A stretch of DNA of 64,000 nucleotides. It comes from Arsenophonus sp. NC-CH8-MAG3. GTDB taxonomy: Bacteria; Pseudomonadota; Gammaproteobacteria; Enterobacterales; Enterobacteriaceae. A program made the position numbers and the translations under genes. This document shows, in pieces, positions 37,588-37,780 of the stretch (the stretch's first letter is position 1; every line of letters starts with the position of its first letter). The notes under the pieces are model-generated. The model worked only from the letters and a program-made list of their open reading frames with translations. It did no database searches and was not told the origin of the DNA. The stretch covers positions 2,915-66,914 of the forward strand of contig JBQMRO010000009.1 in assembly GCA_052174475.1 (NCBI GenBank). The letters run 5' to 3'.

Positions 37588-37621
37588 CACCAAATTGTTG
37601 GGAGAAACCAACAATTTGGTG
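37588..37621. repeat. 14-bp perfect inverted repeat, 6-nt loop, in nuoB
   Basis: CACCAAATTGTTGG-GAGAAA-CCAACAATTTGGTG. Confidence 0.95.
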
Positions 37622-37748
37622 GTAGGGATATTCATCACTGTATTTGTGTGGATAAATTAGGATATGTTTTATATAAAGCATTGAATTTAGGAGAAAAAAT
37701 TCTTTATGGCCGTATAATTTAAGCTTTCATATTTACCATGTTGAAATG

Positions 37749-37780
37749 GTGACTTCTTTCACTGTAGTGAAAGAAGTCAC
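37749..37780. repeat. 15-bp perfect inverted repeat, 2-nt loop, in nuoB
   Basis: GTGACTTCTTTCACT-GT-AGTGAAAGAAGTCAC. Confidence 0.95.

Follow-up and report, generated by a model that had tools for sequence, protein, structure and literature searches.

The window, by which the whole analysed stretch of 64,000 nucleotides is meant, contains the start of a nuo operon that is decayed throughout; its genome is called G000 here, and the relatives compared with it bear the other G-numbers. The nuoB remnant (Table 1) is recognizable from its alignments to intact nuoB: E. coli nuoB-nuoC aligns to the stretch in blastn, tblastn finds the NuoB homology split over two frames with internal stops, the alignment to intact nuoB contains frameshifts as well as stops, and the ORF listing has no long ORF at this place. 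In both G000 and G001, a 1-nt insertion at 37523-37526 has turned the start codon ATG into ATAG, and G006 has ATAA there; judged from its sequence, this lesion is inactivating and common to the clade. The two hairpins described below, assigned in an earlier note to a nuoB pseudogene, do therefore lie in one. Across the genus, a genome search finds nuoB intact in large-genome congeners and decayed in several congeners of 2.3-2.4 Mb. G000 is that of an Arsenophonus-like insect symbiont; for a conserved protein, an Arsenophonus MAG is the closest relative that bears a name. The window has a G+C content of 31%, and long ORFs are almost absent near the nuoB hairpins; in G000 as a whole, ORFs of at least 150 aa make up 27% of the sequence and ~73% lies outside them, a non-coding and pseudogene load that is exceptionally high for a bacterial genome of 2.34 Mb.

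Table 1. Features of the window discussed in the text (+, forward strand; template and rewritten arms as proposed in the text).
Feature	Position	Strand	Description
nuoB pseudogene	~37523-38186	+	delimited by blastn, tblastn and MAFFT against intact nuoB (E. coli, same-genus genomes)
Hairpin 1, left arm (putative template)	37588-37601	+	CACCAAATTGTTGG; near-ancestral, holds the ATT GTT (IV) codons
Hairpin 1, right arm (rewritten)	37608-37621	+	CCAACAATTTGGTG; exact reverse complement of the left arm
Hairpin 2, left arm (putative template)	37749-37763	+	GTGACTTCTTTCACT; same as in intact orthologues, encodes VTSFT
Hairpin 2, right arm (rewritten)	37766-37780	+	AGTGAAAGAAGTCAC; encodes VKEVT
nuoG pseudogene hairpin	40643-40679		perfect, 17 bp; on an ancestral quasi-palindrome ATTGCC/GGCAAT
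G000-specific hairpin	16802-16826		11 bp; right arm rewritten, +3 nt relative to G001, G006 and G018
G000-specific perfect hairpin	8324-8348		11 bp; not in G001 or G018
Perfect palindrome	46642-46691		24-bp arms; left arm new (insertion), right arm near-ancestral
IS256-like copies	~19434-20790, 22214-23603, 30821-32143, 44333-45270, 53016-54359, 55448-57502		

Hairpin 2 has arms of 15 bp that are 100% complementary around a 2-nt loop (gt), as found by a repeat search and by an independent scan; the translation of 37734-37793 is YHVEMVTSFTVVKEVTRFNL, where E. coli has YVEMVTSFTAVHDVARFGA. As single-stranded DNA it folds with -13.3 kcal/mol (z = -6.1), against -3.2 kcal/mol for the intact-orthologue sequence. 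All nine sequences of the intact set (eight from the same genus or related, plus E. coli) read GTGACyTCTTTCACk-GC-kGTrCATGATGTyGC at this site (VTSFTAVHDVA); none of the nine encodes KEVT or forms a perfect stem, and only 10 of the 15 positions are Watson-Crick pairs. The ancestral site is thus a weak quasi-palindrome, that is, a pre-existing imperfect inverted repeat, and the perfect stem is derived from it: the right arm has gone from GGTGCATGATGTCGC to AGTGAAAGAAGTCAC by G>A, C>A, T>A, T>A and G>A (VHDVA to VKEVT), five substitutions each of which increases complementarity, and the left arm has none. Since the left arm is ancestral and the five changes turn the right arm into its reverse complement, the direction is from left to right. 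The earlier note had read VTSFT on the left arm and VKEVT, in place of VHDVA, on an exactly complementary right arm, and had proposed the alignment with intact nuoB as the check; each of these readings holds, and the intact orthologues have neither KEVT nor the stems.

The rewrite of hairpin 2 is common to five degraded genomes (G000, G001, G037, G006 and G032), each an independent assembly, and is therefore taken as one event, dated to their common ancestor; the stem is perfect in G001 and G037 as well and partly decayed in G006 and G032. Among the five degraded and nine intact nuoB sequences, stepwise intermediates at hairpin 2 are absent. Changes are also found on both arms together: G037 has GGGAC...GTCCC where G000 has GTGAC/GTCAC, and over nine sequences five pairs of the stem have both partners changed, where shuffles give 1.8. 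The double changes from C-G to T-A could come from AT-biased mutation hitting each arm independently; the double change from T-A to G-C is opposite to that bias. In the nuoB pseudogene of G018 (G018:C4, ~800-830) there is a 32-nt deletion whose boundaries are exactly those of hairpin 2. This could be a precise excision of the palindrome, in which case the stem would form in vivo and would be older than the split of G018.

Hairpin 1 has arms of 14 nt, likewise 100% complementary, around a 6-nt loop (gagaaa). Here too the reading of the earlier note stands, with the IV codons kept on the left and their exact complement on the right. The left arm (..CAAATTGTTGG) differs by one base from the intact CACAACAAATTGTTGG, and the right arm has replaced unrelated sequence, with a net gain of 9 nt relative to intact nuoB and of 2 nt relative to G001. 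As single-stranded DNA it folds with -14.1 kcal/mol (z = -6.4), where the intact sequence gives 0 and G001 -1.6; because the intact sequence does not fold, hairpin 1 is a new inverted copy and not an older quasi-palindrome made perfect. It is perfect in G000 only, a single assembly, and the stem is found in none of the other genomes compared. Among the sequencing runs searched, none contains G000; the shares of 0.05-0.09 that do match are conserved stretches of relatives. For both hairpins, then, the proposal that one arm was copied onto the other, from left to right, is supported by left arms that are ancestral or near-ancestral and right arms that are their reverse complement. The word 'rewritten', which the earlier note had used, is justified as directional copying; the rewrite of hairpin 2 is not specific to G000, and the probable cause, set out below, is the known process of template switching and not a new mechanism.

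G001, G006 and G018 are all syntenic with the window, and each hairpin of the window was aligned to them. At the nuoG site, different perfect palindromes are found in G000 (without a change in length) and in G001 (19-20 bp, +5 nt), and G006 and G032 are near-ancestral (G037 was left out of this comparison). The palindrome at 46642 contains an insertion of ~+9 to +15 nt, and G001 has a near-perfect palindrome of its own there. In hairpin 1, at 16802 and at 46642, the inserted bases are part of the complementary copy, which point mutation cannot make. G001 and G006 further carry rewrites of their own (36685 and 22717, respectively), at places where intact relatives still have coding sequence. 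The arms of the nuoB and nuoG hairpins are single-copy in G000, without further copies of any of them, and the Rfam covariance models give no match at the gathering score in the whole window.

Three other stems belong to the window region. Perfect hairpins at 58301-58335 (13 bp) and 59300-59323 (11-13 bp) lie inside highly conserved, apparently intact genes and are the same in G000, G001 and G006; they are thus old or tolerated, unlike the pseudogene hairpins. At 60404-60428 of G001, orthologous to ~18.9 kb of the window, a stem AATCCCTCTTC gaa GAAGAGGGATT corresponds to TTATTCTTC gaa GAAGAATAA in G006 and in the window, with several paired positions different; this may be a genuine terminator whose arms evolved by compensatory change, or else a further stem that was re-templated.

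Perfect stems are in excess in the window and in the genome: 13-14 of at least 11 bp in the window, against ~0.4-1.0 in shuffles, and 216 of at least 12 bp in G000, against 8.4. By chance, stems of at least 14 bp are expected ~0.8 times per 2.34-Mb genome (local dinucleotide shuffles) and ~0 times per window; G000 has 77 of them, all outside ORFs of at least 150 aa and none inside. Selection removes hairpins from long ORFs, as this distribution of 0 against 77 indicates. In G017 and G005, both intact relatives, the raw density is similar, at 7.5-11 per 100 kb, with hairpins that look intergenic and are mostly of the form A-tract/stem/T-tract, and thus terminator-like. Because of this comparable density, the raw excess was dropped as stand-alone evidence and a control based on insertion-sequence copies was used instead.

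This control consists of 148 near-full-length copies of one IS256-like element in G000, 206 kb in total, each with ~74.5% identity to the consensus and with ~65% pairwise identity; copies in G001 and G018 are similarly diverged, so that the burst of this element is old. With its fragments, the element amounts to 421 kb, or 18% of G000. The consensus contains no stem of at least 7 bp. For the null, alignment columns were permuted, which keeps the site-wise composition and breaks linkage within copies. Perfect inverted repeats of at least 9, 10, 11, 12, 13 and 14 bp are found 71, 37, 21, 13, 7 and 3 times, against 15.2, 5.2, 1.5, 0.3, 0.1 and 0 after permutation. Mirror repeats, for which we know of no mechanism that should produce them, occur 15, 4, 3, 3, 3 and 0 times, against 10.6, 3.4, 1.2, 0.4, 0 and 0; this control sits at its null. 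The hairpins of the element are copy-specific and frequently come with indels. Their sites have a higher complementarity in the consensus than the average (0.47 against 0.40, p = 2e-6), and they recur: 26 of the 37 stems of at least 10 bp fall into nine hotspots, with arm sequences that differ between copies.

Template switching predicts the rewritten arm on the 3' side of the nascent strand, and the events in the element were therefore polarised by their deviation from the consensus and assigned a strand from the local GC skew. Of the 11 events that could be polarised, 10 have the rewritten arm at the 3' side on the G-rich (leading) strand (p = 0.012), in a test of small size with ad hoc thresholds. 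In the window the + strand is G-rich (skew +0.04), and both nuoB hairpins, the one at 16802 and the events of G001 and G006 fit the pattern; the palindrome at 46642 goes against it. The rewrites thus appear to prefer the leading strand. The quasi-palindrome reporters of E. coli are also strand-biased (PMC7202029).

Hairpins in the element are not equally frequent in all lineages. Stems of at least 10 bp occur at 17.6 per 100 kb in G000, 3.2 in G001 and 4.0 in G018, so that G001 has 2 where 11.1 would be expected from G000 (P = 0.001) and G018 has 3 where 13.3 would be expected (P = 0.0008); the density of hairpins outside the element is similar in all three. Sampling bias (a choice of the 'best 30 loci') was excluded as the source of the excess in G000, the top 40 copies of which hold 11 such stems, and an excess of mirror repeats in G001 was traced to one poly-A run. 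The surplus may reflect a factor specific to G000 or a different ratio between the rates of template switching and point mutation. One dead copy in G018 (L053, G018:C28) has at 567-614 a perfect stem of 22 bp, ATCGCTTAAATAGCACAGGCAC aata GTGCCTGTGCTATTTAAGCGAT, from which the process is taken to be active also in a lineage that keeps mutS.

A survey of repair genes (tblastn, E. coli K-12 proteins against G000) finds sbcB (ExoI), recJ, mutL, dam and xerD as pseudogenes (contigs C29, C55, C9 and others), no match for exoX, sbcC, sbcD, mutS, mutH, recA, recX or rdgC, and intact xseA, xseB, dnaQ, rnhA and recBCD. In E. coli, template switches are cut short by ExoI and ExoVII, and SbcCD breaks down hairpins; the losses are for this reason plausible permissive factors. 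The comparison across lineages, however, does not confirm this. Loss of recA and recJ is found in every degraded genome of 2.3-2.4 Mb, including G018; G000, G001, G006, G032 and G037 are without mutS and have a long-dead sbcB, and G018 has retained mutS, its sbcB being nearly intact with one stop. Repair-gene loss as the cause was rejected since G001 has all the losses of G000 yet ~4-5x fewer hairpins in the element, and mutS/sbcB status was rejected since it separates G018 from the G000 clade, where hairpin density in the element is alike in G018 and G001. The uvrD gene of G000 is cut off at residue 652; G001, G037 and G018 have it intact, and in G006 and G032 it is dead. This pattern does not track hairpin density either, and uvrD was dropped as the factor specific to G000. 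A search of the 26 genomes of the genus, among them members of 3-3.9 Mb with intact repair genes, gave no homologue of SbcD, though it had no positive control genome. Loss of single-strand exonucleases, mismatch repair or SbcCD may thus raise or permit the process, a relation that the cross-lineage comparison does not support; and a rate elevated over that of other bacteria is unproven, given the similar raw density in the intact relatives.

Both nuoB hairpins are very probably the footprints of template-switch (quasi-palindrome-associated) mutation, the same process that would act across the neutral DNA of G000. Ripley, Lovett and Loytynoja have reportedly described such mutation. While DNA is being synthesised, the 3' end of the growing strand would leave its template and pair with a nearby complementary sequence, either in the nascent strand folded back on itself or in the opposite strand; a few to ~20 bases would be copied there before the return to the template. 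In this way the arm made second would be turned into the precise reverse complement of the arm made first, and one event would leave several substitutions close together, either alone or along with an indel. For hairpin 2, such an event would have perfected a weak quasi-palindrome of functional nuoB without a change in length, in the common ancestor; in hairpin 1, a 14-nt inverted copy would have been laid down with extra bases in the G000 lineage only, an event that fits the broader four-point model only, as there is no quasi-palindrome at the intact site. The rewrites would have been neutral, and retained, because nuoB was already dead. All non-functional DNA of G000 would be affected alike, dead copies of the IS256-like element and other pseudogenes included; the same seeds would be hit again and one arm re-copied onto the other, so that stems would stay perfect while their sequence drifts. 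That each rewrite is a single replicative event is how we read these clusters. That a single template-switch event can create perfect stems as well as compensatory changes of several bases is known (PMC8794818, PMC5453318).

The nearest alternative dispenses with a replicative switch: an extruded hairpin or cruciform would have the mismatches of its stem corrected from one arm, and repair would homogenise the two. Where the length is unchanged, as in hairpin 2, the product would be the same, and changes in both arms such as those between G037 and G000 would find an explanation. We nevertheless consider it unlikely, as mismatch repair is gone from G000 (mutS and mutH without a match, mutL and dam pseudogenes), as new arms inserted where there was no prior stem are hard to make in this way (hairpin 1, with an ancestral dG of 0, and the palindrome at 46642), and as the leading-strand bias points to replication.

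Very unlikely, in our judgement, is a selected function of the hairpins, as terminators that silence pseudogenes, as RNA structures or as protein-binding palindromes. A loose terminator scan does flag 37748-37781 (+) and 40679-40643 (-), and hairpin 2 is perfect in G000, G001 and G037 despite a divergence of ~20% in the flanks and changes on both sides of the stem. The tail of hairpin 2 is weak, however (CGATTTAATT), and hairpin 1 has none; the sequence of each hairpin occurs once and comes from the gene in which it lies, the hairpins match no Rfam family, and hairpin 2 has decayed in G006 and G032 and is deleted in G018. An equal excess, moreover, is scattered over the 148 dead copies of the IS256-like element and differs from copy to copy.

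An artefact of assembly or amplification, for instance template switching by the polymerase in vitro during whole-genome amplification of an unculturable symbiont, is very unlikely too. It would account for the fact that hairpin 1 and most hairpins of the IS256-like element are seen in the G000 assembly only, and that the latter are commoner in G000 than in G001 or G018; it would need to prevail in the consensus at several hundred positions, it would neither avoid long ORFs nor follow GC skew, and it would leave unexplained the events that G001 and G006 have of their own and the presence of hairpin 2 in five genomes that were assembled independently.

Chance accumulation of independent point mutations (some complementary changes are favoured by AT-biased mutation, and those of hairpin 2 are all to A, 5/5) and insertion of a mobile palindrome (REP, MITE or RPE-like) are effectively refuted by the permutation null of the IS256-like copies (21 stems observed, 1.5 expected, with ~0 of at least 14 bp per shuffled window), by insertions that belong to the complementary copy, and by arms that are single-copy and gene-derived.

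If template switching is accepted, several consequences follow for the reading of decayed genomes. G000 is a natural mutation-accumulation experiment, with ~73% of its sequence outside long ORFs and 18% in dead copies of an element whose ancestor is recoverable; rate, seeds, tract lengths, indel spectrum and strand bias of template switching should hence be readable from its neutral DNA. In dating the decay of symbionts, clusters of mutations and small indels in pseudogenes should not count as independent events. Perfect covarying stems can arise in dead DNA, which calls for caution in structure calls based on covariation, and lineages that differ in mutS, sbcB and uvrD offer a route to the determinants of template switching in vivo. 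A further-reaching claim, which we regard as possible and rather doubtful, is that template switching is a quantitatively important and lineage-variable force in this symbiont lineage, one that writes and re-writes perfect palindromes all over its neutral DNA, contributes to the death of genes and keeps stems covarying without any selection, and that the absence of RecJ, ExoI, ExoX, mismatch repair, RecA and SbcCD, or a further loss specific to G000, may unleash it; if true, this would be natural proof that covariation alone need not mean a functional structure of RNA or DNA. The mechanism is textbook knowledge for reporter genes and has been inferred in primates and rRNA. A search of a paper library found no work that connects symbiont pseudogenes with template switching or with quasi-palindromes, and template switching as a visible part of bacterial genome decay has apparently not been described before.

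Among known systems, intrinsic (Rho-independent) terminators share with the nuoB hairpins perfect stems of 11-17 bp and are the commonest perfect hairpins in the intact relatives. They differ in that they stand at gene ends, have A- and T-tracts and are conserved, whereas the nuoB hairpins lie in the middle of a gene, have no proper T-tract and come from coding sequence; hairpin 1 is not flagged as a terminator at all, and the stem GC content is ~40%. Mobile palindromic repeats (REP/REPIN, MITE, RPE) have dispersed copies, which the nuoB hairpins do not.

The closest likeness is to quasi-palindrome mutation in E. coli. The system there reportedly comprises a model put forward by Ripley in 1982 and the reporters thyA and lacZ QP5/QP6 from the Lovett laboratory. 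Quasi-palindrome template-switch events are not known to depend on RecA. In E. coli, as here, an imperfect repeat is perfected, changes and indels are clustered in one arm and there is a strand bias (PMC7202029, PMC6357072). Unlike the reporters, G000 shows fixed changes, in the pseudogenes and dead insertion sequences of a wild symbiont and at hundreds of sites, and the dependence on ExoI, ExoVII and SSB is not supported by the cross-lineage comparison made here. Studies of template switching in primates and in rRNA genes report de novo reverse-complement repeats, as in hairpin 1, the fixing of stems, as in hairpin 2, and multibase 'compensatory' changes in one step; they concern primate genomes and rRNA genes under selection, whereas the DNA here is dead and without selection on structure. 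Template switching at inverted repeats in yeast promoters is similar in that arm homogenisation and expansion were recognized by comparative genomics (PMC13100816), in a eukaryote and in functional promoters, as opposed to the non-functional DNA of a bacterial endosymbiont. Set against these systems, the cause is a known mutational mechanism, which is here unusually clear and abundant in the neutral DNA of a decaying symbiont.
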